Assembly: GCA_016712025.1 (NCBI GenBank)
Contig: JADJRW010000009.1
Span: 16,066-80,065 of the forward strand
Direction of reading: 5' to 3'
DNA length: 64,000 nucleotides
Source: Flavobacteriales bacterium
GTDB lineage: Bacteria > Bacteroidota > Bacteroidia > Flavobacteriales_F > PHOS-HE28
The position numbers were made by a program, and so were the translations under genes. This document shows, in pieces, positions 13,565 through 43,732 of the stretch (within the stretch, counting starts at the first letter, position 1; each line of letters opens with the position of its first letter). The notes under the pieces were generated by a model. That model saw only the letters and a list, made by a program, of their open reading frames with translations. It had not been told where the DNA came from and searched no databases.

Positions 13565-14010
13565 ATGGATCTCAAGGAACGTATCGACGCGGACATCAAG
13601 ACCGCGATGTTGGCCCGCGACAAAGACCGCTTGAACGCGCTGCGCGCGATCAAAAGCGCCATCCTGTTGGAATTGACCAAGGAAGGTGGTCAGGCCCAAG
13701 TTTCGGAGGAAGCGGGCGCCAAGCTCCTGCAGAAGTTGCACAAGCAACGCGCCGAGGCCGCCGCGATCTTCAACCAACAGGGAAGGGCCGATCTCGCTGC
13801 AGAGGACGAAGCACAAGCCAAGGTGATCGAGGCCTACCTGCCCGCGCGCATGAGCGACGCCGATGTGGAAGCGGCGGTGAAAGCCATCATCGTCAGCACG
13901 GGGGCCAGCGGCATGAAGGACATGGGCCGTGTGATGGGCGAAGCGAACAAGCAACTGGCCGGCAAGGCCGATGGCGGTGCCATCGCGGCGATGGTGAAGC
14001 GGTTGTTGGG
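13565..14010 (+). CDS. yqeY: GatB/YqeY domain protein; 3' end uncertain because the reading frame runs into the G/C homopolymer tract
   Basis: N-terminal ~147 aa (MDLKERIDADIKTAMLARDKDRLNALRAIKSA...AIAAMVKRLLGG) matches the YqeY/GatB-Yqey family, which is normally ~148 aa. The ORF-track continuation to 14533 is Gly/Pro/Arg nonsense derived from poly-G/poly-C. Confidence 0.7.
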
Positions 14011-15010
14011 GGGGGCCCCCCGCCTGCGGGGGGGGCGGGCCGGGGGGTTTTGCCCGGCCCGCCGGGGTTGCCCTCGGGGGGGGGGGGGGGGGGCCCGCCC
14101 GGGGCCCGCCCGGCGGGCGAAACGGGCGGGGGACCCCCCGGGGGGGGGGGGCGCCCCGCGCCCGGCGCCGGGGTCGGGGGGGTGGCGCGCCCCGCCAAGG
14201 GCGGCCGGGGCTTCAGGGGGGATCGTTCCAACAAGCCGCCCGAACGAACCCCGGCGCCCGGGGAGGGGGGGGGGCGCCCCGGGGGGACCCCGCCGCGCCG
14301 CGGCCGCCCCGCGCGCAGGGGTTGCAACGCCCCCGCAACACACGGCGGGGGAACCCGACCACAGGGTTGGGGCAGCGAGACAACACCCGCACGCCGCCGG
14401 CCGGGGGCAGGGAAAAAAATATTTCAATGGAGTTGCCCCCGCGCAAACACCGCCCCCGGCGACCCGAAGCCCGGGCCCGTTTGGGCCCCCGGGGGGGGGG
14501 GGGGGGCCCCCCCCTTACCGACCGCTAGGGTGAACTACCGCACTCGCGCGGGGCGCGGGGCGGGGGGGGTGCGGGGCGGCGCCGCCGCGCCGCCCCCCCA
14601 CGGGGGGGGGGGGGCTTGGGGCCGGGGTCGCGCTCGAACGAGACCCCGCGTGTAGGGGGCAGGCGGGCCGGGCCACCCCGCACGGGGGGGGGGCCGGCCC
14701 GCCCACATTGCGCGGGGCCGGCCCGGGGGCCGGAACTCCGCCGTGGTGGGGGCCCGGGGCGTGGGCGCGAGGACCACCGCGGGCGGCCGCCCCCCGAGAC
14801 GCGCGGGGGCGGGGCCACCGCCCCACACCGCGGGGGGGAGAGGGGGGCACCCCGGCCGGCCTCGATGTGTTTGTGGCCGGGGGCGGGGTTGGGGGGGGCG
14901 GAAAGCGGCGGGGGCTCCTCCCCGGCGCGGAAAGGACGGCCCGCCCGGGCCGGCGGAGGGGGTCGGGGCGGCCCGCGCGGGGGGGGGCGGGGGGGGGCGG
15001 TGGGGGTGTA
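13995..15010. other. ~1-kb tract of >90% G+C dominated by G and C homopolymers (runs of up to ~20); probably a non-biological assembly or base-calling artefact
   Basis: Seen directly, for example gggggggggggggggcccgcccggggcccgcc and gggggggggggggggcccccccc. All six frames give only Gly/Pro/Arg/Ala strings. It ends abruptly at ~15010 where normal sequence resumes. Confidence 0.6.
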
Positions 15011-15314
15011 TAGACGGATCGTGAAAATCACTCGTGGTCATAGCCGAACGAAGCTTCCACTGATCGGCGTTGCGGTTCTGAACGACAACCCCGATAATTC
15101 AGGTCGCGAGAACCTTCGCCCCCGCCGAGACCTGCTCGCGATCGTTGTAGAAGGCGACCAAGACCTTAGGTACCAGCGGTGATGCGCCAGGTCACTGCCC
15201 AACTGGGCGGAGACCCATCCGCCAGCGGTGCTTCGGCGTTCCGTCCGGCTTGCGAACTGGCGAGGCACGGACAGCGCGACATCCGTTCCCACGTGACCCA
15301 GGACGGGGGGGGCC

Positions 15315-28456: not shown

Positions 28457-28653
28457 TGCCTCGAGCGAGAACTCGAAGCCCGAACTCCGGCGCGAGCTTC
28501 ATTGTGCAACAGAAAGGGGTCGCGGAAATGCGGCGGAAACCACCCCTCATTCCCCTCCTTATGTGCTCGGGCGAGCGATCACCCTCAGGAGGCGAGGTCA
28601 ATGCAGAAAGCCGCCCCGGTCCCCCGAAGCGGCTCTTCCGATCGACGTTCTCT

Positions 28654-29163
28654 TTACTGCATCGCGCTCGCTTGCGTGTCGACGGCGATCTTCTCCTGCG
28701 GCATGTTCAATATCACCGTGGTGAGGCGGCCATCGCAGTCCACGAAAGCCACCGCGCCCACTGGCCCGGCATAGGCGAGTAGCTGGCCTTCCGGCTGGCG
28801 CTCCAGTTCCAGATCGAAACCTACTTTCTCGGTGCGGGCGAAGACGCCTTCGGTGCTGGGCGCGTTGTGCGTATCGAGCAACACCTCCTTGGTGAGGTAG
28901 CCGGGACTGGCGATGTGTAACGTTACCTTTTCGTCCACGGGCACGAAGAACTTGTAGTTGCCGGTGCGGCCCAGCTCTACGTCCATGGTTTCGGTGCCAT
29001 CGGTCACCGTCATGTGTACCGGGTGCAGGGCGTTTTCCTGGAGGATCACGCGGCCCTCGAAGGCGACGTAGGCCTGGGCGTTGGCCAGTGTGCAGAGGGA
29101 GATCCCGGCGACGATCAAGCCGGCTTGGAAGAGGGTGCGGGTGATGTGGGGCTGGAGGTTCAT
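28654..29163 (-). CDS. Small secreted protein, CarboxypepD_reg-like; paralog 2
   Basis: MNLQPHITRTLFQAGLIVAGISLCTLANAQA signal peptide. Paralog of 26794..27303. Located directly downstream of the decayed TPR kinase on the same strand. Confidence 0.65.
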   Translation of the reverse strand: MNLQPHITRTLFQAGLIVAGISLCTLANAQAYVAFEGRVILQENALHPVHMTVTDGTETMDVELGRTGNYKFFVPVDEKVTLHIASPGYLTKEVLLDTHNAPSTEGVFARTEKVGFDLELERQPEGQLLAYAGPVGAVAFVDCDGRLTTVILNMPQEKIAVDTQASAMQ

Positions 29164-29205
29164 GGCAATGGGGTTTGTTAGGTGCGTTGTTGTCGTTGGC
29201 TGGGA

Positions 29206-29278
29206 CAAAACTCATCGTACCCGAAGCCGGCGCGTAGCCTGGATGAGCAAGTGGCGGGTGGGGGGAAGTAATTGGTGG
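29206..29278 (-). promoter_or_regulatory. Putative LytTR-box promoter of paralog 2
   Basis: Plus-strand AGCAAGTGGCGG (~29246-29257) and degenerate AGTAATTGGTGG (~29267-29278), 21 bp apart. GAGTTTTG in gene sense (plus CAAAACTC 29206-29213) lies 43 nt upstream of the ATG. Box-to-(-7) spacing identical to 27358..27430. Confidence 0.5.
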
Positions 29279-29403
29279 GAACGGAGATCCCAGCCGCAAG
29301 GCACTAGCCTCAAGCCACAAGCTTCATGCGGCGTCGAAGACGACATGAGGTCGTCAGGTCTGGTAGAGCTTGTGGCTAGTGGCTTGAGGCCCTCGCCCCG
29401 GCG

Positions 29404-31608
29404 CTAATTCGCGTACATCAGCGGCATATCCACCTCCACCCGGGTGCCCTGCGCGAGATCCACGTATTTGAAGCCGGCCTTTCCACCGTGCTGCTTCTGC
29501 ACCAGGTCCAAACGTGCGCGTGTGATCGTGGTTCCCAACGAGGTCTTCTTCACCCCGGTCACTGGAGTTCCTTCCGGCAAGGGTGCCTTCTTCGCATGTC
29601 GCCCTGCACCATTGTCCTCGATGATCCACACGAGTTGCTTCTCCCGCGCTTCCACTTTCAAGCGGATTTGGCCTTGCCCTTCCTTCCCCGCCATGCCATG
29701 CCAGATGGCATTCTCTACGAAAGGCTGCACTACGAGCGGAGGTACCATCACCTCTTCCGGATCGAGCCCCGGATCTACCTCCACGGTGAAATCGAACTTC
29801 TTGTCCATGCGCATGCGCTCCAGGTCCATGTAGCCGCGAAGGGCTTCCAGATCTTCGGAGAGGGACACTTCCGCATGGCGGCTGTTCTCCAGCACGCTGC
29901 GCATCACGCGGGCGAATTTCCCCAAGTAACTGCTGGCGCTGTCCTGGTCGTTGCGTTGCACGAACGCGTTGATCGAGTTGAGCGCATTGAATATGAAGTG
30001 CGGGTTCATCTGGCTTCGCAATGCCTGCGTCTCAAATGTGGCCGCTTCCTTCTCAAAGCGTTCCTGCCGCCGCTTCCTGTCGGATACGAACCAGGCCCCC
30101 GCCCCGCTGAGCAAGAGCAGCGCCCCGCCACCGGTGGCCCAGGCGCGGTTGCTGTTCTGGTCCGCACGCATCGATTCGATCGTACGTTCTCGCTTTCCAG
30201 CACCATGCGCTCGCCGGCATAGCGCAGGCTGTCCGCCATTTGCTGTTTGCCGAAGGTGTAGAGCAGGTCGCGTTGGGTGAGCTCTCGCGTGCTCTTTCTC
30301 GGTGGCCATGCTGTCGCGTGTCACCACATGGAATTCCTCGAGATAGCGCAATGCGGTCAGACCATCGCCCCGCGCCTTGTGGGCCAGATAGAGGCATTCG
30401 CAGTTTTCACCGCGTTCGGTCAACGCGGCCGCCTCGCCAGCGCGAACCGCGCCGTGCAATGCGCGATCGCTTCACGCGGCAGGACCTCGGTCCAGAGCCA
30501 CGCGGCCCAAGAGGGCCAGGGTCTCGGCCTCCGTGGGCGCATCCTTGAGTTCACTCCCCAGGGTGAGCGCCTCGTCGCAATGAGCCATCGGCATCGGCGG
30601 TCGGCCCGTCTCGCGATATGCACGGGCCGGCAGTTCACAGTGTGCGGCACATCAGGTCTTTCGCATCGAACTCGCGTTCCAAACCGATGCGCTCCAACCA
30701 AGTGGATCGCGCTATCTGGCTGGTCCATCTCCAATAGCGCGCTGCCGATGCTCCGGCCAGAGGTCATCATGCCTTGACGATAGCCGACCTTGGTGTAGAA
30801 ACCGTACGCACGTCGCAACAAGGGCCGGGGAGTCATCCGTCTTCACCGAGCGCGTCCTTAAGGTCCGCTCACGGTGGTGAGCGAGGTCGCGATGCCGCGG
30901 TCGTTCTTCAGATCTTCCATGATGGCGAGGCACTTGTAGGCGAAGTCGATCGCGGGGCCGATCTGGCCCATGCGCTCGTCACGTTGGCGCGATTCCCCAT
31001 AGCTCGCGGCCACCATTGCGGCCATGCCGAGGGTCGCCGCGAGCTCTGCCGCCTTGGCGTAGTTACGAGCGCGCTGTCGTTCTGCCCCTGGATCCTGGTG
31101 CAACGGCCGATGCCTGCCGAACCCTCTTCATCGTTCGCCAGGTGGTGCATCGCGGATGCGCTGGTCCAAGGCTCCATCGCCTCTTCCATAAGGCCAGGGT
31201 TCTTGTGGCCAACTGCCCATGCTGCTGGATGATGCCCACGCTCCCCGGCATCTGGCGGCCAGCCTCCAGTGCCGAAAGAATCCCTGGCGGTGGTACAGCG
31301 TGTGCAGGGCGGTAGCGGTGGAGCGCTTCATCAATGTTCCGGGCCTCGCATCGGCTATAGCGCCAAAGTGCGATGCGCCAGGGTGTCGTTCTGCTCACGG
31401 CCTGGCGCAACAGGTCATCGCACAGCACGCGCGCCGAATCGGAGTTCTCGTAGCGTGTTTCGTCGACGATCTCGTGCAGGAGCAGGAGCCGCTCGTGGTC
31501 GTCCTGTCCCGGCGTGCGGTAGACCTGCCAGAGCGAATCGAGGTACGGGCTATCGGAGGTCTGGGTGGCAGACAGGAAGGAGAAGGACAAGAAGCAGGAG
31601 GCTAGCAC
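29404..31608 (-). pseudogene. Third TPR-sensor LytS-type histidine kinase, broken into at least 5 reading frames (decayed gene or locally very poor sequence)
   Basis: C-terminal kinase half is intact in ORF 29404..30459 (TM, MNPHFIFNALNSINAF, ATPase). The N-terminal signal peptide and TPR region are scattered over ORFs 30420..30836, 30858..31103 and 31063..31608 (MLASCFLSFSFLSATQ...) in different frames. Confidence 0.55.
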
Positions 31609-31670
31609 AGGAACTTAGGGCACGTTTGGAATGGGCGAGGCAGTGTTCGCCTACCGCCAAGGTAGCTCCG

Positions 31671-32369
31671 CTACCCCACCTGCAACTTGAACCCTACCCC
31701 ATGCACGTTCACGATCTGCACGCGCGGGTCGTTCTTCAGGTACTTGCGCAGGCGGCTGATGAAGACATCGAGGCTGCGGCCCAGGAAGTAGGTGTCATCA
31801 CCCCAGACCATGTTGAGCACCAGCTCCCGCGGCAGCACCTGGTCCTGGTGCAGGCAGAGCAGCCGGAGCACATCAGCTTCTTTTCGCGTGAGCTTCCGCT
31901 CTTCGGTGGGATGCTTCAGCACGAGGTCGCGCTGATCGAAGGTGTAGTCGCCCAGTTCGAACACATCGCGTTTGCGCTTGTCATCACCCTTGCCCTGCGT
32001 GCGGCGTAGGATGGCATCGATGCGCAGGGCGAGCTCTTCGTGACTGAAGGGTTTCGTGAGGTAGTCATCACCCCCGGCCTTGAACCCGGTGATGCGGTCC
32101 TCGGTCTGGCTCTTGGCGGTGAGGAAGACGATGGGCACTTGCTCGTTCACCGAACGGATGTCCTCCGCCAGGCTGAAGCCGTCCTTGTGCGGCATCATCA
32201 CGTCCAGCACGCAGAGGTCGTAGCTGTGCTCGTTGAAGTACTTCAACCCTTCCTTGCCATCGCGGCACAGGTGTACCGCATAGCCTTTGCGCTTTAGCGC
32301 GTCCTGGATCACGAAGCCCAGGTTCTGGTCGTCCTCCACCAGCAGGATGTTCGCTTTGGTATCGCTCAT
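31671..32369 (-). CDS. OmpR-family response regulator (receiver + winged-helix)
   Basis: Receiver motifs (ILLVEDD, DLCVLDVMMP, K) and a C-terminal trans_reg_C domain (READVLRLLCLHQDQVLPRELVLNMVWGDDTYF...VHGVGFKL). Confidence 0.88.
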   Translation of the reverse strand: MSDTKANILLVEDDQNLGFVIQDALKRKGYAVHLCRDGKEGLKYFNEHSYDLCVLDVMMPHKDGFSLAEDIRSVNEQVPIVFLTAKSQTEDRITGFKAGGDDYLTKPFSHEELALRIDAILRRTQGKGDDKRKRDVFELGDYTFDQRDLVLKHPTEERKLTRKEADVLRLLCLHQDQVLPRELVLNMVWGDDTYFLGRSLDVFISRLRKYLKNDPRVQIVNVHGVGFKLQVG

Positions 32370-32414
32370 GCTTAGTGCGCCGAAGCCCGGCGTAGGCGTG
32401 ATCGTGGTGTTCGT

Positions 32415-33734
32415 CTAAGCCAACGGAAGTTCTAAAATGAAAGTGCTGCCATGCCCGGGTTCGCTGTGTACAGTGATCCGACCGCCGTGGGCCTCGGCGA
32501 TCTGCCGCACATAGTGCAGGCCCAGACCGAAGCCCTTCACATCATGCACATTGCCGGTGTGTACCCGGTAGAAGCGCTCGAAGATGTGCCGCTGATCCTG
32601 CCTGCCGATGCCGATGCCATGGTCGCGCACTTGGATGTGCAGCCATCGCCCATCGTTCTTTGTTCCCAGTTCGATCGTCGGCGCCGCCGGACTGTACTTC
32701 ACAGCGTTGTCCACCAGGTTGTGAAGAGCGTTGCTGAGATGGACCCGGTCGCCGGATACAACGGCATCGCTGGCTTGGAGGTCGGAGCGGAGTTCACCAT
32801 CCCGCTCTTTCAACACCAGATCGAACGAGCGCGATACCTCACCGATGAGGGTGTGCATGTCCACCCGATCGCGCTTCATGCGTGCATTGCCGTCCTCCAG
32901 CGTGGTGAGTTGGAGCACGCGTTCCACCTGGGCGCGCAGGCGTTCGTTCTCCGAGCGGATGATGCCCGCATAAGTGCGCAGACGTTCCGGTTCATGCACG
33001 ATGGCGGGATCACCGAGTACCTCACTGCTCAATGCGATGGTGCTGATCGGCGTCTTCAACTCGTGCGTCATGTTGCCGATGAAGTCGTTCTTCATCTCGC
33101 TCAGTCGTTTCTGCCGTGCGATGGTCCACACGCTGTAGGCGAAGAAAATGAACACGATCAGAGTGACGATCGCCGGGTAGATCCAGGTACTGCGGCTGGC
33201 CGGTGCCGGCGACCAAAGCGCGCTGCTGCGTCGCGGGAAGTAGACCCCGAAGTAGTGGCCGTCCTTGTCCAGTTTCTGCAGGTCGGTGTGGGTGCTGTCC
33301 GTGGTCACGGAATCCATGCCCACATAGTTGCCATAGACAATGCTATCGGTGAAGCAATCGTAGATGCCGTACTCGAAATCCTCCTGGATCCCGCGCCGCT
33401 GGAACTCCTTCATCAGCAAGGCCTCGAGCAGGTAGGGGTGGAGCGTGTCGTTGATGGTGACGGCGAAGTAGTTGGGCCGCTCCTCGACCACCGCATCGAA
33501 CAGGTCGGAGGGGTCCTTGTTGATCGACAGGATCTGCTCAGTTACGTCCGTGAGGGCGATGGTGACCCGATCGCTGAATTGTTTGTCCAGTTGTACCTGC
33601 TGCTGGCGCTGCAGTGTGAGCTGGTCGTTCTGTAGGCGGAAGGCGCGGTCCAGCCACAGCATCTGCGTGAGCACCACCCCGATCACGCTCAGCGTGGCGA
33701 GCAGCACCAGGGTTCCGAGACCGCGCCGTTTCAT
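32415..33734 (-). CDS. Sensor histidine kinase (HisKA + HATPase), partner of the OmpR-family regulator
   Basis: Two TMs, H-box (MTHELKTPISTI), N, G1 (DHGIGIG) and G2 boxes. 46-bp gap to the downstream regulator. Start at MKRRGLGTLVLLATL. Confidence 0.85.
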   Translation of the reverse strand: MKRRGLGTLVLLATLSVIGVVLTQMLWLDRAFRLQNDQLTLQRQQQVQLDKQFSDRVTIALTDVTEQILSINKDPSDLFDAVVEERPNYFAVTINDTLHPYLLEALLMKEFQRRGIQEDFEYGIYDCFTDSIVYGNYVGMDSVTTDSTHTDLQKLDKDGHYFGVYFPRRSSALWSPAPASRSTWIYPAIVTLIVFIFFAYSVWTIARQKRLSEMKNDFIGNMTHELKTPISTIALSSEVLGDPAIVHEPERLRTYAGIIRSENERLRAQVERVLQLTTLEDGNARMKRDRVDMHTLIGEVSRSFDLVLKERDGELRSDLQASDAVVSGDRVHLSNALHNLVDNAVKYSPAAPTIELGTKNDGRWLHIQVRDHGIGIGRQDQRHIFERFYRVHTGNVHDVKGFGLGLHYVRQIAEAHGGRITVHSEPGHGSTFILELPLA

Positions 33735-33746
33735 GGTCCAGGTAAT

Positions 33747-33900
33747 AGAGGCTATCTCAAAAATACCCTTTGGGCTCCGCAAGGGTCTTCCGCGCCCATG
33801 CTTCGTTGTGAGAGCCCGGGGCGCCCAGCCTGCTCGGTTCTCACGCCTCGCCGAAACAGATCCCTCTTGCGCGCTTCCAAAGCATTTTGAGATAGCCTCT
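33747..33900. repeat. 16-bp perfect inverted repeat (AGAGGCTATCTCAAAA / TTTTGAGATAGCCTCT) with a 122-bp spacer in the divergent intergenic region
   Basis: Seen directly at ~33747-33762 and ~33885-33900. The left arm overlaps a perfect Bacteroidota -7 consensus (TATTTTTG in the sense of the kinase gene), 24 nt before its ATG. The right arm is ~66 nt upstream of the glycosyltransferase start. Confidence 0.5.
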
Positions 33901-33965
33901 GGGCAATGTTACAGGTTCACGATCTTGGCGGCCGCTGCGTTAACGATCCTTTGGATCGGCCGCCT

Positions 33966-35358
33966 ATGTCCCTCCTGCACTATCGTTTCCTTCTTTTCGT
34001 TCTGGCCGCTGTTGTAGCGGCCGGTATGGGTCTGGACCTCAGGGAGGTGGACGCCGCGCAGTACGCGGCCATGGCGAGGAGATGCTGGAACGCAAGGACT
34101 ACCTGCACCTGTACCACCGCGGCAGGATTACCTGGACAAGCCTCCGTTGCTTTTCTGGCTGTCCGCGCTGAGCTACCATGTCTTCGGGGTCAGCAATTGG
34201 AGCTACAAACTGCCCTCCGTATTGGCCGCGTCCTGGGGTCTTTACGCCCTTTACCGGTTCGTGCGCCTGCATCGTGATGAGGCACGCCCGTTGGGCCTGT
34301 CTTCGGACTAGTAGCGCCGCCTTCCTTCTCATGACCAACGACGTGCGGAGCGACACCTTGCTCACCGCCCGGTGATCAGCGCGGTGTGGACGGGCTCGGC
34401 GTACCTCGAGGAACGGAGATGGTGGTCGTTGATCGCCTTCGGGGTCGCTTTGTCCGCTGGCTTGCTGGCCAAGGGGCCCATCGGGGCGGTGGCGCCCATA
34501 CTGGCATTGGGCGGTGATGTCGCCTTGCGCGGGCGGTGGGGGAAGCTGTGGGACGCACGCTTGCTGCTCGTGCCCGTCCTGGTCCTCCTGCTCCTCCTCC
34601 CCATGTTCCTGGGCCGCTACGAGCAGCATGGTTGGCATGGTGTGCGCTTCTTCCTATGGGAACAGAGCTTCGGTCGTATCACCGGTGAGAACCGCTGGAA
34701 GGATGACAGCACCCCGTTCTTCTTCCTGCACGAGTTACCCTGGCTCATGCTGCCATGGACGCTCTTCCTGGTCGTGGGTCTTTGGCGATTTCCAGGTTTG
34801 GGCAACGCTGTGGAACGCATTGCGAGGAACGCATCTCGCTCTGGCGGGTGCCGTTGCCGTATTCGTGGCGGTGTCCTTCTCGCACTTCAAGTTGCCGCAT
34901 TATATCTACGTCACCCTGCCCTGGTTCGCGGTGCTGGCGGCGAACGGCCTGAGGACCCGCCGCCTTGGCTGGTCCGCGCGCATGGGGCGCTCTTGGCGCT
35001 CCTTGGTGCGGGCGTCGGGTTCGTTGTCCTGTATTGTTTTCCATCCAACACCGGCATGGTGACGCTGATCGCCTTGGTGATCACGTGCGGTTACGCCATC
35101 CGAACCACATGGCAGGGAAGGGGATCATGGGTCGCGGCGACGGGCGCGTTGTTCATCGCATGCGCACTGACGATCAATGTGTGGATCCATCCCGCCGTTC
35201 TTCAATACCAGGCCAATGCCTTCGCTGGCCGTTGGGCAGTCGAGCACGGCGTTCCGGAGGATCGCTTCTTCGGCCTGCAAGTGGCGGGTACCGCGCTCGT
35301 CTCTACGCCGGGCACCCGGTCCGTTGGTTGTCCAATTTGGAGGAAGCTGCGGGAGTAG
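33966..35358 (+). pseudogene. Glycosyltransferase family 39/83 (ArnT/PMT-like membrane glycosyltransferase), at least 3 frameshifts
   Basis: Characteristic N-terminal segment is split across frames: ...DAAQYAAMAR | EMLERKDYLHLYHRGR | DYLDKPPLLFWLSALSYHVFGVSNWSYKLPSVLAASWGLYALYRF. A polytopic membrane C-terminal part follows in ORF 34372..35358. Confidence 0.55.
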
Positions 35359-35790
35359 CGCCTGGCGGTGATTTACACTGATGCCGCCCATGCCGAACCC
35401 TTCGGGAGGCGGGGTTCGTTCCGAAGGACAGCTTGGCGCTCCAGGATCACCGCGTGCAACTGCTCAGCCCGGAGTTCCTCCTACCGAGCACTCGTTCCAA
35501 GGTGCTTGGGTCCCGCTTGATCTTGGTCTACTAGCAGACCTCTGCTCACCCGCTCACATTTTTTTTCGGGACCTCCGAACAAGAGTTCGAGCAGTCTGTT
35601 CAGTCCTGTACAACTTTCCCTAAACAACCGTCCAGCGGCGGCATCAACCAACCATCCCATGCAGACGTTCCCTCCCGGACAACCAGGCCTCTTTATGAGG
35701 TTGTTGCGAACCATGTCACTCATGGTCGCCTTGGTTTTCCCAGTCCCGCAATGACAATCCTATTGCCCTTCCGACGGAGGTTCGGGCAAT

Positions 35791-36210
35791 GTGTTCAACG
35801 TACAGCGCGTGCAGTTCGCTGGTATCGACAACAGTAGTGGCGACAACAATGGCTACGCCGACTTCACGTCGATCAGCGCAACGGTTCAAGCAGGTGATGC
35901 CTATTCGATCACTTTGGACGGGGCGGGGGTCTTCTTCCTTCCGAAGCGCTTCCGCGCCTGGATGGACTGGGATCAGAACGGAGTGTTCTCCGCTTCCGAG
36001 CTCGTATTCCAAGCAAATGGCTTTGGCCAGCAAAGCGGAACGGTCACAGTTCCAGCAGGGGCGAACCTGGGGTCCACGCGTATGCGTGTGAACACCAGTT
36101 CACTCACCTACCAAGGCGCCTGCGCCAATTACAGTCTGGGTGAAGTCGAGGATTACACGGTCATGGTCATCGGTCAATGCCAGGCCAGTGCGGGCGCACT
36201 CAGCCAGTAA
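35791..36210 (+). CDS. GEVED-domain segment, probable N-terminal portion of the large repeat surface protein (separated from it by a frameshift-ridden, degenerate stretch)
   Basis: NYSLGEVEDYTVMV motif and surrounding GEVED-domain-like sequence. A signal-peptide-like stretch (MRLLRTMSLMVALVFPVP) lies ~100 nt upstream in another frame. Confidence 0.5.
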   Translation: MFNVQRVQFAGIDNSSGDNNGYADFTSISATVQAGDAYSITLDGAGVFFLPKRFRAWMDWDQNGVFSASELVFQANGFGQQSGTVTVPAGANLGSTRMRVNTSSLTYQGACANYSLGEVEDYTVMVIGQCQASAGALSQ

Positions 36211-36479
36211 AGCCACTGATCTGGCTATACGGGCATTGAAGCTTTCATTCAAGCAACTGTTACCGCTCAGCCTGTAGTTCCCTCCAGGATACGAAGTCGT
36301 CTATGTGCTTACGCAAGGCCCAGGACTTGTCATTCAGAACGCTGGTGCCGACCCGCAGTTCTCTGTGGGTGTTGGAGATTACACCATCCACACCTGCACA
36401 TGACCTTTGATGGCAAGGGCTGAGCAACGACAACGACAACACAGTTACGCTGCGCGCAGAACGCGGGCGCCCCGAGCTT

Positions 36480-39400
36480 AGACCGAAGAGGACTCTAATC
36501 CACACCCGTTACGACCAACACGCTGGACCTGTCCATCGTGGAATTGGGCGTGACCACGGGCTTTGATGTGAACGGATTGCTGGTGCAAGGCGGTGGCGCG
36601 ATCTGCGCCGCCTTGGATGTAGCCGGTGCTCAGTTCAGTGTCACGGACCCGAACGCAGGCACCCTGAGCGGTGGCGCGGATGTGTGCGGCACCAACGGTG
36701 CAGCTACACTAACGGCCACTGCCAACGGCGACGCGAACGTACCAGCGGGATACAGCACGGTGTACGTGCTGACGCAAGGTGCGGGCCTGACGATCGTGAA
36801 CGCAGGAGCGGCCCCGAGCTTCGATGTGACCGAAGATGGACTCTCACGATCCACACCCTGGTGTACGATGCCAACACGCTGGACCTGTCCATCGTGGAGT
36901 TGGGTGTTACCACGGGCTTTGATGTGAACGGATTGCTGGTGCAAGGCGGCGGCGCGATCTGCGCGAGCCTGGATGTGGCCGGTGCCCAGTTCAACGTGAG
37001 CAGCCCGAGCGCAGGCACCCTGAGCGGTGGCGCGGATGTGTGCGGCACCAACGGTGTGGCCACACTCACCGCCACTGCCAACGGCGACGCGAACGTACCA
37101 GCGGGATACAGCACGGTGTACGTGCTGACGCAAGGTGCGGGCCTGACGATCGTGAACGCAGGAGCGGCCCCGAGCTTCGACGTGACCGAAGATGGACTCT
37201 ACACGATCCACACCCTGGTGTACGACCCCAACACGCTGGACCTGTCCATCGTGGAGTTGGGCGTGACCACGGGCTTTGATGTGAACGGATTGCTGGTGCA
37301 AGGCGGCGGCGCGATCTGCGCGAGCCTGGATGTGGCCGGTGCCCAGTTCAACGTGAGCAGCCCGAGCGCAGGCACCCTGAGCGGTGGTGCGGATGTGTGC
37401 GGCACCGATACGACCACCCTCACTGCCACTGCCAACGGCGACGCGAACGTGCCAGCGGGATACAGCACGGTGTACGTGCTGACGCAAGGTGCGGGCCTGA
37501 CGATCGTGAACGCAGGAGCGGCCCCGAGCTTCGATGTGACCGAGGATGGACTCTACACGATCCACACCCTGGTGTACGATCCCAACACGCTGGATCTGTC
37601 CATCGTGGAATTGGGCGTGACCACGGGCTTTGATGTGAACGGATTGCTGGTACAAGGCGGCGGCGCGATCTGCGCGAGCCTGGATGTGGCCGGTGCCCAG
37701 TTCAACGTGAGCAGCCCGAGCGCAGGCACCCTGAGCGGTGGCGCGGATGTGTGCGGCACCAATGGTGTGGCTACGCTAACGGCCACTGCCAACGGCGACG
37801 CGAACGTACCAGCGGGATACAGCACGGTTTACGTGCTGACGCAAGGTGCGGGCCTGACGATCGTGAACGCAGGAGCGGCCCCGAGCTTCGATGTGACCGA
37901 AGATGGACTCTACACGATCCACACCCTGGTGTACGATGCCAACACGCTGGATCTGTCCATCGTGGAATTGGGCGTGACCACGGGCTTTGATGTGAACGGA
38001 TTGCTGGTGCAAGGCGGCGGCGCGATCTGCGCGAGCCTGGATGTGGCCGGTGCCCAGTTCAACGTGAGCAGCCCGAGCGCAGGCACCCTGAGCGCGGATG
38101 ACGACGAAGTATGCTTCGAAGAAGGTACGGTCACTATCTCAGCCACCCCGAATGGTGATGCAGTTGTACCGGCGGGCTATAGCACGGTATACGTGCTGAC
38201 GCAAGGTGCGGGCCTGACGATCGTGAACGCAGGCGCGACTCCGAGTTTTGAGATCAGCGCGATCGGTGACTACACCATCCATACGTTGGTATACGACCCG
38301 AATACGCTGGACCTGTCCATCGTGGAGTTGGGCGTGACCACGGGCTTCGATGTGAACGGATTGCTGGTGCAAGGCGGTGGCACGATCTGCGCGAGCCTGG
38401 ATGTGGCCGGTGCGTCCGTAACGGCGGTGGAATGTCCGCTGAATTGTGATGCACTTGCAGGCACCCTGAGCGGTGGTGCGGATGTGTGCGGCACCAATGG
38501 TGTGGCCACACTCACTGCCACTGCCAACGGCGACGCGAACGTACCAGCGGGATACAGCACGGTGTACGTGCTGACGCAAGGTGCGGGCCTGACGATCGTG
38601 AACGCAGGAGCGGCCCCGAGCTTCGACGTGACCGAAGATGGACTCTACACGATCCACACCCTGGTGTACGATCCCAACACGCTGGATCTCACCATCGTGG
38701 AGTTCGGCGTGACCACGGGCTTTGATGTGAACGGATTGCTGGTGCAAGGTGGCGGCGCGATCTGCGCGAGCCTGGATGTGGCCGGTGCCCAGTACAACGT
38801 GAGCAGCCCTGGTGCGGGAACACTGTCCGCCGAGGCTTCGGAAGTCTGCCTGATCGATGGTGTGGCCACATTGACCGCCGCTGCCAATGGCGACGCGAAC
38901 GTACCAGCGGGTTACAGCACGGTCTACGTGCTGACGCAAGGTGCGGGCCTGACGATCGTGAACGCCGGAGCGGCCCCGAGCTTCGACGTGACCGAAGACG
39001 GACTCTATACCATCCACACCCTGGTGTACGACCCCAACACGCTGGACCTGTCCATCGTGGAGTTGGGCGTGACCACGGGCTTTGATGTGAACGGGCTGCT
39101 GGTGCAAGGCGGCGGCGCGATCTGCGCGAGCCTGGATGTGGCCGGCGCCCCGATCAATGTGATCGAGTGCAACACGGATTGCATCGCCGATGCGGGTACG
39201 ATCGCGGCTGAAGACTTCATCGTCTGTCGTTCGGGCGGTAACGCGACCCTTACCGGTATCCCCGGGGGCAATGCAGTGGTTCCGGCCGGCTACCAGACCG
39301 TGTACGTCCTGACCCGTGGTTTCGGTCTCACCATCGTCCAAGCGGGTGCGACACCTGTGTTCAACGTGCAACAACTCGGTCTGTACCGAATTCACACCCT

Positions 39401-39560
39401 GATCTATGATCCCGCGACGCTGGATCTATCGATCGTGCAGTTCGGCACAACCACCGGTTTCGATGTGAACGCCCTTTTGATACAGGGTGGAGGCACGATC
39501 TGCGCCAGCTTGGATGTGACCGGTGCCCCGCACCTGGTGGTTGGTCCCTTCCTGTGCTCC
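36480..39560 (+). repeat. Tandem array of ~8.5 near-identical 357-bp (119-aa) coding repeats
   Basis: The string gtgaccgaagatggactctacacgatccacaccctggtgtacga and its flanks recur with a period of 357 nt. One copy has a 3-nt deletion (354) and one a 1-nt deletion (356, the frameshift at ~36845). Two copies carry short Cys-rich insertions (~38400 and ~39150). Most copies are >95% identical at the DNA level. Confidence 0.9.
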
Positions 39561-39929
39561 CTCCTCAACGGCATCTTCGGTGCCGGTCAGCAGAGCACCG
39601 ATGCCCTGGTGTTGCAGGATGGTACCGAGATCGACGCCGAGATGCTGAAGGCTATCGAAATGGACATGCCTGCCTCGGTAACCGCTGTTTGGCCGAACCC
39701 TGTGCGTGATGTGCTGAATGTGGAATTGACCGTGCTGTCTGAAACCCAGTTGGGACTCTCCGTCACCAACAGTCTCGGACAGGAAGTCGCACCGCGCATC
39801 GGTATCAATGCTGGTGTGGGTGTTAGCAGAACTACGATCGATGTCGCCGCACTTCCGGTCGGCACCTATTTCCTGCGGCTCTCCGCTGGCGATGGCGTGA
39901 CCACTGAGAGGTTTGTGAAGGTGGATTGA
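36684..39929 (+). CDS. Large tandem-repeat cell-surface protein with T9SS C-terminal sorting domain (intact 3' part of a longer, 5'-disrupted gene)
   Basis: 1081-aa ORF made of 119-aa repeats (...LTATANGDANVPAGYSTVYVLTQGAGLTIVNAGAAPSFDVTEDGLYTIHTLVYDPNTLDLSIVELGVTTGFDVNGLLVQGGG...). It ends with a T9SS CTD-like ~80 aa (VWPNPVRDVLNVELTVL...GTYFLRLSAGDGVTTERFVKVD). Confidence 0.8.
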   Translation: MRHQRCSYTNGHCQRRRERTSGIQHGVRADARCGPDDRERRSGPELRCDRRWTLTIHTLVYDANTLDLSIVELGVTTGFDVNGLLVQGGGAICASLDVAGAQFNVSSPSAGTLSGGADVCGTNGVATLTATANGDANVPAGYSTVYVLTQGAGLTIVNAGAAPSFDVTEDGLYTIHTLVYDPNTLDLSIVELGVTTGFDVNGLLVQGGGAICASLDVAGAQFNVSSPSAGTLSGGADVCGTDTTTLTATANGDANVPAGYSTVYVLTQGAGLTIVNAGAAPSFDVTEDGLYTIHTLVYDPNTLDLSIVELGVTTGFDVNGLLVQGGGAICASLDVAGAQFNVSSPSAGTLSGGADVCGTNGVATLTATANGDANVPAGYSTVYVLTQGAGLTIVNAGAAPSFDVTEDGLYTIHTLVYDANTLDLSIVELGVTTGFDVNGLLVQGGGAICASLDVAGAQFNVSSPSAGTLSADDDEVCFEEGTVTISATPNGDAVVPAGYSTVYVLTQGAGLTIVNAGATPSFEISAIGDYTIHTLVYDPNTLDLSIVELGVTTGFDVNGLLVQGGGTICASLDVAGASVTAVECPLNCDALAGTLSGGADVCGTNGVATLTATANGDANVPAGYSTVYVLTQGAGLTIVNAGAAPSFDVTEDGLYTIHTLVYDPNTLDLTIVEFGVTTGFDVNGLLVQGGGAICASLDVAGAQYNVSSPGAGTLSAEASEVCLIDGVATLTAAANGDANVPAGYSTVYVLTQGAGLTIVNAGAAPSFDVTEDGLYTIHTLVYDPNTLDLSIVELGVTTGFDVNGLLVQGGGAICASLDVAGAPINVIECNTDCIADAGTIAAEDFIVCRSGGNATLTGIPGGNAVVPAGYQTVYVLTRGFGLTIVQAGATPVFNVQQLGLYRIHTLIYDPATLDLSIVQFGTTTGFDVNALLIQGGGTICASLDVTGAPHLVVGPFLCSLLNGIFGAGQQSTDALVLQDGTEIDAEMLKAIEMDMPASVTAVWPNPVRDVLNVELTVLSETQLGLSVTNSLGQEVAPRIGINAGVGVSRTTIDVAALPVGTYFLRLSAGDGVTTERFVKVD

Positions 39930-40095: not shown

Positions 40096-41323
40096 ATGCG
40101 CCTCGCTACACTTTTCGCCAGCGGTCTTCTTGCCGGCGTCCTTCATGCACAAACCACGGTAACGGTCACCACGGGCCCGGCCAATTCCGAACAGACCTGG
40201 TACAGTCTCGCCGATGGCGTAGTTGGCTCGGCAGCGCTGGCCGAGTGGGACCTGGCCTTCGAGATACAGGGATTCACCGCGAGTATCCTCACCAACGGTG
40301 CGAAAGGCATCGTGCTGTACAAAGCCCCATACGCCATAGGCGACTTGGGCCGCGCTGGATACGAACGGCATGGGCACCACCTGGACCACCTCATACAACA
40401 GCGATAGCGATTGGAGCAGCGGCGCTTTCAACCAGGGCCTCACCACGGATGAGTTCGATCTGGGCTGGGGCGTGTACAATATGATCACCCACGCCGTAGC
40501 GGGCGATAGCCTGTTCGTGATCAAGCTCGCCAACGGGGCGTTCAAGAAGATCCGTATCGACGCGCTCGCCACCGGCAGCTACTCCTTCGCCTGGGCCGAT
40601 GTGGATGGCGCCAACGAACAGACCGCCTCGGTCGCCAAGGCTGCCTATGCCGACAAGAATTTCGCCTACTACAGCCTAGAGAACAATGTTGCGCTCGACC
40701 GTGAACCCGTCAACAACACCTGGGATCTGCTCTTCACCAAGTACACCACGTTCATCCCAACGGCATACGGCGTTTCCGGAGTGCTCACCAACAAGTACAT
40801 CACCTCGCTCCGCGTGGATGGCGTCGATCCCAGCCTCGCTGATTGGACCACCGCGCCGTTCGATAGCGTGATCAACACGATCGGCTACGACTGGAAGACC
40901 TTCAACATGCAGACCTTCCAGTACGAGTATGATCAGGACCTCACCTTCTTCGTGCAGGACCGAACGGGTTCCATCTGGAAGCTTCTCTTCACGGAGTACG
41001 GCGGAAGCGCCACCGGTGATATGACCTTCACCCAGGAGCTGGTGAGCGCCGCTTCCGTGGAAGAACGTGCCACGAACGGCCAAGCCGTGGTGTTCCCGAA
41101 CCCCGCCACCGACGCGGTGAATGTGTTGTTCGACATACCGGCAACGGATGCTGTGCTCACGATCCATGATGTCGCTGGCAGCCTGGCGCGCACTGAGCGT
41201 TTCGCGGGCATCACGCCCATGTCCACCCGGATACTTGATATCTCCGGCTTGCGCACTGGGGTGTATTCCCTGCGCTTGGAACACGCTTCCGGAGCGGTAT
41301 ACTCCCGCTTGGTGGTGCGCTAG
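40096..41323 (+). CDS. HmuY-like (heme-binding-like) protein with T9SS C-terminal domain; one apparent frameshift near 40360
   Basis: Signal peptide MRLATLFASGLLAGVLHAQ. WDLAFE and WDLLFTKY motifs are shared with the downstream paralog at 43729..44703. The C-terminal VVFPNPATDAVNVLF...GVYSLRLEHASGAVYSRLVV is T9SS-CTD-like. Located immediately upstream of a TonB-dependent receptor. Confidence 0.5.
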
Positions 41324-41470: not shown

Positions 41471-43732
41471 ATGCGCGGCGTCGCCCTTTTTCTTCTCTTC
41501 CTCGTGCCCTGCACTTCGCTGAGAGCGCAGGTTTTTGTTCAGGTATCCGACGCTGTTGACGGGGCACCGGTCCCGTTCGCGGGGATCGAGCTTCTTTCCG
41601 CGGATAGTGCGCGCCTGGCGGCAGTGGCCACCGACCAACAGGGACACGCAAGGCTTTCGGCGGAAGCGGCTAGTTCGCAATGAGGTTGATGCGCGTCACC
41701 GCCCTGGGGTTCGCATCGCGCGTGCTACCCATCGCGCCTGAACGTATGCGGGTGGCCTTGCAGCGCGATCAACGCTTGCTGCGCGAGTTGGTCGTCACCG
41801 GACAGTATGCGCCTACCTCCACCGATCAGGGCCGTTCACAAAGTGCGCGTCATCGATGAACGCCGCCTGAAAGCCCTCGCCGCCAATGACCTGAGCGATG
41901 CGCTGCGCAACGAGTTGAACATCCGTCTTTCGCAGGATAACATCCTCGGCTCATCCGTGAGCATGCAAGGCTTGAGCGGGGCGAACGTGAAGGTGCTCGT
42001 GGACGGTGTGCCAGTGATCGGCCGCCTGGACGGTGACCTGGATCTGGCGCAGATCGGCCTCAACGGGATCGCCCGCATCGAAGTGGTGGAAGGGCCGCTC
42101 AGTGTGAGCTATGGCAGCAACGCGCTGGCGGGCACCATCAACCTGATCACCAAGCGCAATGCGGGTTCGGCACCCACTGTGAAGTTCTCGGCCTACGCCG
42201 AACAGATCGGCCGCCTCAACCTCTGGGGCACCTTCGCGCAACGCTGGGGCCGCCACCATTTGAACGTGAACTTGGGCCGCGACTTCTTCAACGGCTGGAA
42301 CCCGACCGATCAAGGCATCCCCGACTTAGGTCCCTCACCTGCCGACACCACCCGCTTCCAGCAATGGAAGCCGCGCGAGCAATACACCGGCCGCATCAAC
42401 TACCGCTGGAACGGTGCGCGTTGGCAGTTGGGGTACAAGGGCGAGTACGCCGATGACGTGATCACCAACAGGGGCATGCCGCGCGAGCCCTATCGCGAAA
42501 CCGCCTTCGATGAACGCTACCACACGGTGCGGTTGGACAACGCCCTTTTCGCCGATCGCTTTTGGGAAGATGGACGCAAGCTGACCCTGCTCGCTGCGCA
42601 CAACCGCTACACCCGCACGCGCAATACTTGGCTCCGTGACCTCACCTCCCTCGATGGGGAATTGGTGCCATCCGAAAGCATGCAGGACACCTCGTTCTTC
42701 ACGCTTTCCAATGTGCGCGCGGTCTATGCCAGTGCCGGGGACAGTGCCCGCCTGCGTTATGAACTGGGCACCGACCTGAACTACGAGACCGGTTCCGGTG
42801 GCCGCATCGAGGCTGGCGATCAAGTGATCGGCGACTACGCGCTTTACACGAGCCTGGAGTATCGTCCTGTGGAGAAACTCACGCTTCGCCCGGCGCTGCG
42901 CTATGCGTACAACACGGTCTATGGAGCACCGCTGTTGCCTTCGCTCAACCTGCGTTGGCAGTTGGCGAAGAGCGTGGTGGCCCGTGCCAGCTTCGCGCAA
43001 GGGTTCCGCGCACCGTCGCTCAAGGAGCTGTACTTGTTCTTCGTGGACGTTAACCACAACGTTCAGGGGAACACGGAGTTACGCGCCGAGCGGTCCAACA
43101 ACTACAGCCTCTCCTTTACCTGGACCAACGCCAGGGAGCGGGGCGCATGGCGCGCTGAGATCAGTGGCTTCTACAACGATGTGCAGGACCTGATCACATT
43201 GGCCCAAGTGGACGCATCACTTTACACCTATACCAACATCGGCACCTACCACACCGCCGGAGGCACTGCGGGTTTGGGTTGGGAGGATGCGCGGTGGTCG
43301 TTCACCGCAGGTGGCAACCTCACGGGCCGCAGCGATGACCTCGCGCAACAGCAACAACAGAAGTATCTCTGGGCGCATGAAGCGCGCGCTTCGGCGCAAT
43401 ACACCTGGGCCAAGGGTGGGCTCACCGCGCAAGTGTTCTACAAGTATCAAGGGGAGGTGGCGAACTACATCACATGGAGCGATGGTTCCGTGGGTCGCGG
43501 GGCGATCGCGGCCTACAGCATGGCCGACGCATCCGTCACGAAGTCGTTGTGGAAGGAGCGCCTCGGGATAACGCTCGGATGCAAGAACCTCTTCGACGTC
43601 AAGAACGTGACCACCACCGCTTCGGATGAAGGCGGCGCGCATGCCAGCGGAGGGAGCAGCGTGCCTATGATGACCGGACGGATCTGGTTCGTGGGGTTGA
43701 ACGTCGAACTAACGGGAGGGAAGGAGCGATGA
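41471..43732 (+). CDS. TonB-dependent outer-membrane receptor (HmuR-like by context), two apparent frameshifts near 41670 and 41805
   Basis: Signal peptide + CarboxypepD_reg-like N-terminus (MRGVALFLLFLVPCTSLRAQVFVQVSDAVDGAPVPFAGIEL) in ORF 41471..41683. Middle piece ...RELVVTGQYAPTSTDQ in another frame. Plug and barrel in ORF 41807..43732, with a C-terminal aromatic-ending barrel. Confidence 0.75.

Follow-up and report, generated by a model that had tools for sequence, protein, structure and literature searches.

Type A cargo of a type IX secretion system (T9SS) is exported by Sec, after which its C-terminal domain is recognised and removed and the protein is attached to the cell surface. 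Long repetitive bodies are known among T9SS cargo: the long DNA repeats of HagA from Porphyromonas gingivalis are nearly identical, and SprB and RemA of Flavobacterium, which have type B sorting domains, serve gliding. A second group of described proteins, the CshA-type fibrillar adhesins, is the source of the definition of the GEVED domain, which is counted as a stalk or partner domain; the stalk domains begin 12–17 residues after its motif, and the order of GEVED, an immunoglobulin-like (Ig-like) tandem array and a surface anchor arises by domain shuffling (Barringer et al. 2023, PMC10952558). The subject of the present analysis is a repeat-bearing gene at 35695-39929 on the plus strand of a 64-kb stretch of contig JADJRW010000009.1 from a Flavobacteriales bacterium (assembly GCA_016712025.1); this whole stretch is referred to below as the window. 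The locus is probably a single gene for a T9SS-exported fibrillar surface protein or adhesin of nine, possibly ten, units, the disruptions in its 5′ part being deletion-biased consensus errors.

The predicted product resembles the CshA-type adhesins in the order of its parts: no more than about a dozen residues separate GEVED from an Ig-like tandem array, and a surface anchor comes next; the first unit begins at about the 12–17-residue distance after the GEVED motif. Unlike these adhesins, it has no NR2-like adhesive domain upstream of GEVED, its anchor is a T9SS sorting domain and not LPXTG, its stalk unit belongs to an undescribed family and some of its orthologs have no GEVED. With HagA, SprB and RemA it shares a long repetitive body, a C-terminal sorting domain and, putatively, a Sec signal peptide. 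However, the unit is unrelated to them in sequence, with only the sorting domain matching in Pfam and NCBIfam, and nothing ties the gene to gliding, the role of SprB and RemA. The gene is one of a family of T9SS repeat proteins that has no name but is otherwise ordinary.

One tandem array dominates the window. Tandem Repeats Finder located it at 36515-39162 (period 357/360, 7.4 copies, 87% matches, score 3945); no second comparable array was found by the same program in the 64 kb, all other arrays scoring 137 or less. Units located by the motif anchors PAGYxxVYVLT, YTIHTLVY and TTGFDVN number nine, D1–D9 (anchors at 36281, 36742, 37098, 37452, 37809, 38169, 38544, 38904 and 39282). Eight of them are complete and D1 is broken, and the figure of about 8.5 copies in the first-pass annotation, made from the sequence alone, was a fair one. 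A unit is about 119 aa long with a period of 354–378 nt; the spacings of the anchors in the TTGFDVN region are 356, 357, 354, 357, 360, 375, 360 and 378 nt. The repeat periods are multiples of three, and the near-identical repeats are in frame. The longest open reading frame (ORF), at 36684-39929 (1081 aa), represents only the 3′ portion of the gene, and its initial 50 or so codons are repeat sequence read out of frame.

The locus was compared with orthologous loci from other assemblies. Loci L001, L002 and L004 belong to metagenome-assembled genomes (MAGs) deposited as ‘Flavobacteriales bacterium’; the contig of L004 has a name in the ‘tig’ style of long-read assembly, and L001 and L002 show a like pattern of frame switches. 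L005, covering the upstream side, and L003, covering the downstream side, are contigs of one short-read (Illumina) MAG, Go_SlAct_bin_145. The gene in the window is composed of the following parts.

35695-35754, plus strand: signal-peptide-like start MRLLRTMSLMVALVFPVPQ, with the ATG at 35695, ended by an in-frame TGA at 35752-35754
35755-36177, plus strand: globular N-terminal module, closed by the GEVED motif GEVEDYTVMVIGQ (PF20009)
36178-36391, plus strand: N-terminal half of D1 (CQASAGALS ... PPGYEVVYVLTQGPGLVIQNAGADPQFSVGVGDYTIHT), with two stops and at least three frame changes; intact and in frame in L005 and L001
36392-36510, plus strand: garbled 119-bp stretch, colinear with one 357-bp period, with many deletions
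36511-36654, plus strand: C-terminal half of D1 TLDLSIVELGVTTGFDVNGLLVQGGGAICAALDVAGAQFSVTDPN, with the D1-specific signature ICAALDVAGAQFSVTDP, also found in D1 of L005 and L001
36655-37010, plus strand: D2, its frame shifted by a 1-bp deletion at about 36845 (GGACTCT-CACG)
37011-37367, plus strand: D3, homogenised block
37368-37721, plus strand: D4, homogenised block
37722-38078, plus strand: D5, homogenised block
38079-38456, plus strand: D6, divergent (75–77% identical to D3–D5), ending in the Cys linker VTAVECPLNCDAL (38412-38456)
38457-38813, plus strand: D7, of the homogenised class (95–96% identical to D3–D5)
38814-39191, plus strand: D8 (85–88% identical to D3–D7, conserved in L003), ending in the Cys linker PINVIECNTDCIAD (39147-39191)
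39192-39560, plus strand: D9, divergent terminal unit (YRIHTLIY ... APHLVVGPFLCS), 62–63% identical to the other units
39561-39686, plus strand: non-repeat linker of 42 aa between the array and the sorting domain, with no family match
39687-39929, plus strand: C-terminal T9SS sorting domain of type A, with the stop codon (PF18962, TIGR04183)

The N-terminal module contains the GEVEDY motif, matches PF20009 well above its cut-off of 24.4 bits (76.3 bits, E 3.3e-21, residues 66–136 of the module translation) and is 84–88% identical to its counterparts in L001, L004 and L005. The sorting domain exceeds the curated cut-offs of both PF18962 (E 1.6e-9, 38.4 bits against 27, residues 1002–1077 of the 1081-aa ORF) and TIGR04183 (E 1e-10, 41.5 bits against 23), the two matches spanning residues 1002–1079, at the very C-terminal end. 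The GEVED segment, the sorting domain and the signal-peptide-like stretch near 35695 had all been noticed in the first-pass annotation and lie where it had put them; its general picture, a large T9SS-sorted protein with an upstream GEVED domain and a unit absent from curated libraries, was upheld.

Comparison with relatives indicates that 35695-39929 carries one gene and not two, since L005 (signal peptide, GEVED, D1–D3) and L003 (D6–D9, sorting domain) are each read in a single frame. The 5′ part of L005 runs as MSLLRTMSLMVAVVFATSANAQSYCPS ... GEVEDYTVMVMGQCQASAGALQPVKPLICYTG ... and through D1, D2 and D3 to the end of the contig; its start reads MSLLRTMSLMVAVVFATSANA and then QSYC, with no stop and in frame with the rest. 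The window is short of three single bases relative to L005, at 35740, 35752 and 35754, and these losses, all within 15 bp, give rise to the TGA at 35752. Two intact homologs, P0088 (1265 aa, 8 units) and P0115 (891 aa, 5 units), likewise consist of signal peptide, GEVED, units and sorting domain, and both also have a distinctive last unit like D9. A gene for a GEVED protein standing apart from a gene for a repeat protein, an arrangement that the first-pass annotation had named as one that would refute it, is ruled out by the single frame in L005, P0088 and P0115.

The repeat unit matches nothing above threshold in Pfam or NCBIfam, in which the sorting domain and GEVED are the only matches of the protein, and a profile search against all PDB sequences gave no match at E ≤ 1; these results agree with the earlier remark that the module resembled no recognised domain family. 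Sub-threshold traces of Pfam PKD were seen on the units, as was Ig_SIBA-E_2nd with a score summed over copies; no single stretch passes the gathering score of a PKD or Ig-like Pfam family. When 1.84 billion cluster representatives (clusters at 50% identity) were searched exhaustively with a profile, 763 proteins were retrieved at E ≤ 1e-3, 448 of them at E ≤ 1e-30; the 150 best-scoring representatives contain 2–24 copies per protein (median 5). In species-representative genomes, 548 stretches were confirmed; the best 80 of these come nearly all from Flavobacteriales, Saprospiraceae and other Bacteroidota, including Bizionia echini. In public sources, “T9SS type A sorting domain-containing protein” and “hypothetical protein” are the sole names given to members. 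Judged by these searches, the unit is a large Bacteroidota domain family, of at least 763 such clusters, undescribed in curated databases. A first homolog search with one unit had given only pieces of 65–209 aa, as if from a family of small proteins; these proved to be frameshifted or contig-end fragments.

Two members of the family stand apart. Locus L022 (CAXPZW010000011.1), with six units and a GEVED-like N-terminus, is found in a MAG labelled Luminiphilus sp. (Gammaproteobacteria), while all other matches are from Bacteroidota; it is a binning contaminant or a transfer. The ENA protein P0067 combines a shikimate-kinase-like N-terminus (PF01202), half a repeat unit and an unrelated tail, and is probably a chimeric short contig.

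The unit was modelled by AlphaFold2 from a 44-sequence alignment of diverse units with a predicted local distance difference test score (pLDDT) of 93.2 and a predicted template modelling score (pTM) of 0.85. The model has seven strands, a short helix (residues 103–109) and a final strand. A Foldseek search of the PDB gave no match at E ≤ 1e-3; the nearest structures are PKD (2e7m, 4u6t), FN3 and Ig domains with template modelling (TM) scores of 0.3–0.4 (0.55 when normalised to a PKD target). The structure prediction and the Ig-like comparison suggested in the first-pass annotation give a fold that is loosely PKD/Ig-like and no above-threshold match to a PKD or Ig-like Pfam family. In the model, the unit is a PKD/Ig-like sandwich with a family-specific C-terminal element: it shares a β-sandwich core of about 85 residues with PKD, FN3 and bacterial Ig-like stalk domains but adds to it a helix-bearing C-terminal element of about 40 residues, with the motif TTGFDVNGLLxQGGGxICAxLDVxGA, and a conserved Cys pair. 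The most conserved positions over 733 units are AG10-11, Cys21, Pro40, Phe66, His77 (96%), Cys113 (100%), Asp117 (94%) and Gly120.

The product would consist, in order, of a Sec signal peptide, the GEVED module, nine (possibly ten) β-sandwich units of about 119 aa, a linker and the type A sorting domain. From the established biology of type A cargo, it would cross the inner membrane via Sec, and the T9SS would then recognise the C-terminal domain, remove it and attach the protein to the cell's outer face. As a chain, the Ig-like units may make up a fibril some tens of nanometres in length, tipped by the N-terminal module. By analogy with the GEVED-containing fibrillar adhesins, a role as surface fibril or adhesin is the most likely one; the combination of stalk array and surface anchor that marks fibrillar adhesins is present here as nine β-sandwich units and a T9SS sorting domain. 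The words ‘S-layer-like’ had also been used for the protein in the first-pass annotation, and nothing was found in their support.

For pairwise comparison, the units were cut in domain phase (AGTLS ... SSPS) and one base was restored in D2. Five of the nine (D2–D5 and D7) are 95–97% identical in DNA and make up a homogenised class, in which a pair differs by 8–11 synonymous-only codons and 1–7 amino acids. The pairs among D3–D5 are 95.8–96.9% identical, with 8–10 synonymous-only codon differences against 1–4 amino-acid differences, and the restored D2 is 97.2% identical to D3. Against this class, D8 is 85–88%, D6 75–77% and D9 62–63% identical; the earlier statement that most copies are over 95% identical applies to the five homogenised units and fails for the others (62–88%). 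Since synonymous changes are in excess, the codon comparison shows the homogenised units as selected protein-coding copies of some age, not as brand-new duplicates.

The two Cys-containing stretches reported earlier are present at their places, but they are not insertions. Among 333 inter-unit linkers of family members, 57% have two Cys and 20% have one, so that Cys linkers are usual in the family (77%), and insertion is ruled out; the typical form is ...ECxxxCxAxAGTL. The window has the Cys linkers ECPLNCDAL and ECNTDCIAD, and its homogenised units have the Cys-free linker QFNVSSPS. Judging from the family, Cys-bearing linkers are the common and probably the ancestral state, and the QFNVSSPS linker is the derived one.

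The number of units differs between relatives: 9 in the window, 10 in L002, 12 in L004 and 12–13 in L001, these relatives being 77–94% identical, that is, species rather than strains, and all from error-prone assemblies. These counts would fit the variable copy number suggested in the first-pass annotation, and it is plausible that strains, or members of one population, differ as well. The arrays of L001 (7159-7259) and L004 (6798-8201) have irregular unit spacings and 4–7 frame switches, and their copy numbers are uncertain. The last four spacings, 360/375/360/378, are common to the window, L003 and L004, while L002 has 375/361/377 and L001 ends in 360/378. Because these 3′ spacings recur while the totals differ, all the variation in copy number appears to lie in the homogenised block.

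The stretch D6–D9 is 93–99% identical to L003 (97% over 38000-38499, which contains D6), as against the 62–88% between D6, D8 or D9 and the other units of the window; by this comparison, D6, D8 and D9 behave as stable positional orthologs. The more distant orthologs L043, L030, L021 and L024 hold 8–10 units that are 62–78% identical to one another, which argues that the array is ancient. Across the orthologs, it appears as an array of roughly constant length whose inner units are homogenised or re-expanded lineage by lineage; in L037 and L006, the inner units are 95–100% identical. In the window, unequal recombination or gene conversion has probably homogenised the inner units D2–D5 and D7 or duplicated them anew.

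The count of nine is itself open to some doubt. It is conceivable, if on the whole rather unlikely, that near-identical units were collapsed or mis-joined, or a mixed population merged, and that the real gene has at least ten units. The garbled stretch at 36392-36510 is the principal sign of this. Between YTIHT and TLDLS of D1 the window has 119 bp and its relatives have 18 bp, the garbled stretch being absent at the D1 position in L005, L001 and L002. A gapped alignment of it to one period scored 114, against 62 ± 5.6 for 200 shuffles, and it is a deletion-riddled remnant of exactly one repeat period. It would be a tenth unit that was called badly, or else consensus debris left by reads of differing copy number, and it possibly marks the site where reads disagreed. 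One exact-pattern scan each of JGI metagenome contigs for the garbled stretch and for D1 gave no match.

The closest long-read relatives, moreover, have 12–13 units with irregular spacings of 100, 298, 445, 508 and 539 nt, and the nearest relative's contigs, from short reads, break off within the array: L005 ends in it and L003 starts in it. The matches in Winogradskyella, Lacinutrix and Bizionia are also cut at contig ends, and the trouble for assemblers foreseen in the first-pass annotation is real; its caution over the true copy number and the 5′ junction was justified, one whole unit being colinear with the garbled stretch. Set against a higher count are the regular spacings of D2–D9 (354–378 nt), an ORF uninterrupted for 3.1 kb and the recurrence of the D6–D9 spacing pattern in four other assemblies. 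A tenth or further unit would be compatible with a single gene for a T9SS-exported repeat protein and would not replace that explanation.

The region 36178-36654 contains in-frame stops, at least three frame changes and the garbled stretch, and the further 1-bp deletion in D2 follows. These disruptions are very probably sequencing or assembly errors and not gene decay. L005 is 93.8% identical to the window over 31563-36395, and two adjoining segments of the alignment compare as follows.

31640-33813: 2174 aligned bases, none missing and none extra in the window, substitution identity 94.4%
33814-36395: 2573 aligned bases, 39 missing and 9 extra in the window, substitution identity 95.5%

The indel-rich patch has 48 indel bases, 115 mismatches and no excess of substitutions. 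Its indels are tightly clustered, with ten 1-bp losses in 75 bp of intergenic DNA, and cross the intergenic region and two genes; clustered losses of 1–3 bp lie within 33814-35530, in the intergenic DNA and in the upstream glycosyltransferase gene. Further frameshifts are found in the genes downstream.

33906-35530, plus strand: PMT_2/GT39-type glycosyltransferase gene, upstream, split over three frames; uninterrupted in L005, at 548 aa, as in L001, at 528 aa (PF13231)
40096-41323, plus strand: downstream gene for an HmuY-like protein with its own T9SS sorting domain (PF14064, PF18962), with a net +1 frameshift at 40344-40354; intact (408 aa) in L003
41471-43732, plus strand: TonB-dependent receptor gene, with two frameshifts in its N-terminal part, one at 41666-41674 and one at 41829, where a G-run has one G too many; intact (751 aa) in L001 and L003
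43729-44703: second HmuY-like gene, after the TonB-dependent receptor

In L003, D6–D9, the sorting domain and the HmuY-like gene are read in a single frame at 93–99% identity to the window. A survey of frame switches in 20 syntenic loci found none in the repeat genes of L006, L020, L021, L024, L030 and L043, each with 8–10 units, one each in L026 and L072, and 3–7 in the long-read MAG loci L001, L002, L004 and L033. Real decay would be expected to raise substitutions too, and the absence of such an excess argues for error, as do the clustering of the indels, their passage across gene borders and their absence in the short-read relative. The decayed 5′ region of the first-pass annotation is therefore there as a set of stops and frame changes but finds no support as biology. 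The frameshifts in the PMT_2, HmuY-like and TonB-dependent receptor genes would likewise be deletion-biased consensus errors of the assembly. Low quality over the whole window is ruled out: the MraY, MurD, MurG and MurC genes are complete, 31640-33813 is free of indels and the noise is patchy. A TPR/histidine-kinase gene at 28598-31608 on the minus strand is present in the window as several ORFs (240, 351 and 181 aa), compared with a single one of 738 aa in L001; over 29001-31399, the alignment to L005 has 69 gap openings, and this is probably another noisy patch.

Some observations weigh against a fibrillar surface protein whose gene is disrupted only by error. Library scans found no dedicated adhesive domain in the repeat protein, the GEVED-containing module being the only candidate present. 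Moreover, GEVED is missing from the orthologs L020, L021, L024, L026, L030 and L043, which occupy the same place between PMT_2 and HmuY-like genes and have their first unit about 250 bp after PMT_2. These orthologs weaken the idea that the array merely presents GEVED; it may be that a stalk presenting a tip is the wrong picture and that function resides in the units. The case for error is drawn from comparison with relatives only 86–94% identical. The missing bases also lack a homopolymer-type signature (9 of 39 in homopolymers, against a background of 45%), which is not the classic nanopore pattern, and 3.1 kb of the array (36846-39929) are free of frameshifts though flanked by noisy patches.

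The last two observations would also suit a true pseudogene, in which small deletions had inactivated the repeat gene in its 5′ third, together with the PMT_2, HmuY-like and TonB-dependent receptor genes, leaving a 1081-aa remnant without signal peptide. The disruptions do stand in the sequence as given, and bacterial pseudogenes are biased toward deletions. This reading is nevertheless unlikely: constraint does not appear relaxed, the substitution identity being no lower in the indel-rich patch than beside it; the indels fall in tight clusters and in intergenic DNA; four adjacent genes of differing function are affected, while the two-component genes in between have none; and the genes are intact in every relative from a short-read assembly.

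The pairs of HmuY-like protein and receptor described in Flavobacteriia are haem uptake systems, and for the use of haemoglobin, the HmuY-like HfpY/HfpR system of Flavobacterium psychrophilum seems to depend on further factors of the T9SS (PMC9331221). The locus in the window is like these Hmu/Hfp loci in that an HmuY-like gene and a TonB-dependent receptor gene lie directly downstream and are conserved; it differs from them in that the described loci have no such repeat protein, the HmuY-like protein here bears its own T9SS sorting domain and the functional link is putative. The gene order is two-component system, PMT_2, repeat gene, HmuY-like, TonB-dependent receptor and second HmuY-like gene. 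The full order is kept in L001 and L004 and is noisier in L002. The core order of PMT_2 (where the flank allows), repeat gene, HmuY-like gene and TonB-dependent receptor is kept in 19 other loci, with neighbours down to 45–55% identity; PMT_2 lies upstream of the repeat gene in 17 loci, and an HmuY-like gene follows it in 19 loci other than this one. A linkage to HmuY is ruled out for the domain family as a whole by the heterogeneous neighbours of ten other family loci, and from the genomic comparison, it is a property of this ortholog group only.

This neighbourhood invites the idea that the units are not a passive stalk but ligand-capturing modules, for haem or a haem protein, of the adjacent uptake system. 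Haem capture by tandem NEAT domains in Gram-positive bacteria and by the HagA repeats in Porphyromonas offers parallels; the orthologs without GEVED retain their units, and His77, Asp117 and Cys113 are 94–100% conserved over the 733 units. The conserved gene order and the T9SS factors apparently needed by HfpY/HfpR point the same way. Even so, ligand capture is quite improbable. No NEAT fold occurs among the top 50 Foldseek matches and no haem-binding fold among the PDB neighbours of the unit, which has no sequence match to a solved structure either; L037 and L042 keep PMT_2, GEVED and the units but are without the HmuY cassette; family members elsewhere have unrelated neighbours; and a gene order conserved within one bacterial order may reflect shared descent. 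Least probable of all is the wider proposal, made from gene order and conserved residues and nothing else, that the units bind ligand and form, together with the PMT_2, HmuY-like and TonB-dependent receptor proteins, an undescribed Flavobacteriales surface system passing a haem- or metal-containing substrate from a multivalent fibril to the receptor, which, if true, would be the Bacteroidota counterpart of the tandem-NEAT Isd proteins.

Elsewhere in the window, 14000-15200 is G-rich and of low complexity, with 73% G+C against about 61% in the rest; one frame of it was translated and proved rich in Gly, Pro and Arg, and it comes shortly after the cell-wall and division cluster of MraY, MurD, MurG and MurC (2.9–9.7 kb).

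Reading the disruptions as consensus errors removes a false lead, as annotation pipelines would otherwise call four pseudogenes here: the repeat gene, PMT_2, the HmuY-like gene and the receptor gene. The array is a clean example of repeat dynamics, being apparently ancient, with inner units homogenised in some lineages and stable units at the edge. The conserved neighbourhood of HmuY-like protein and TonB-dependent receptor gives a hint of function that can be tested, and the unit family merits a Pfam entry, which would improve the annotation of T9SS cargo.

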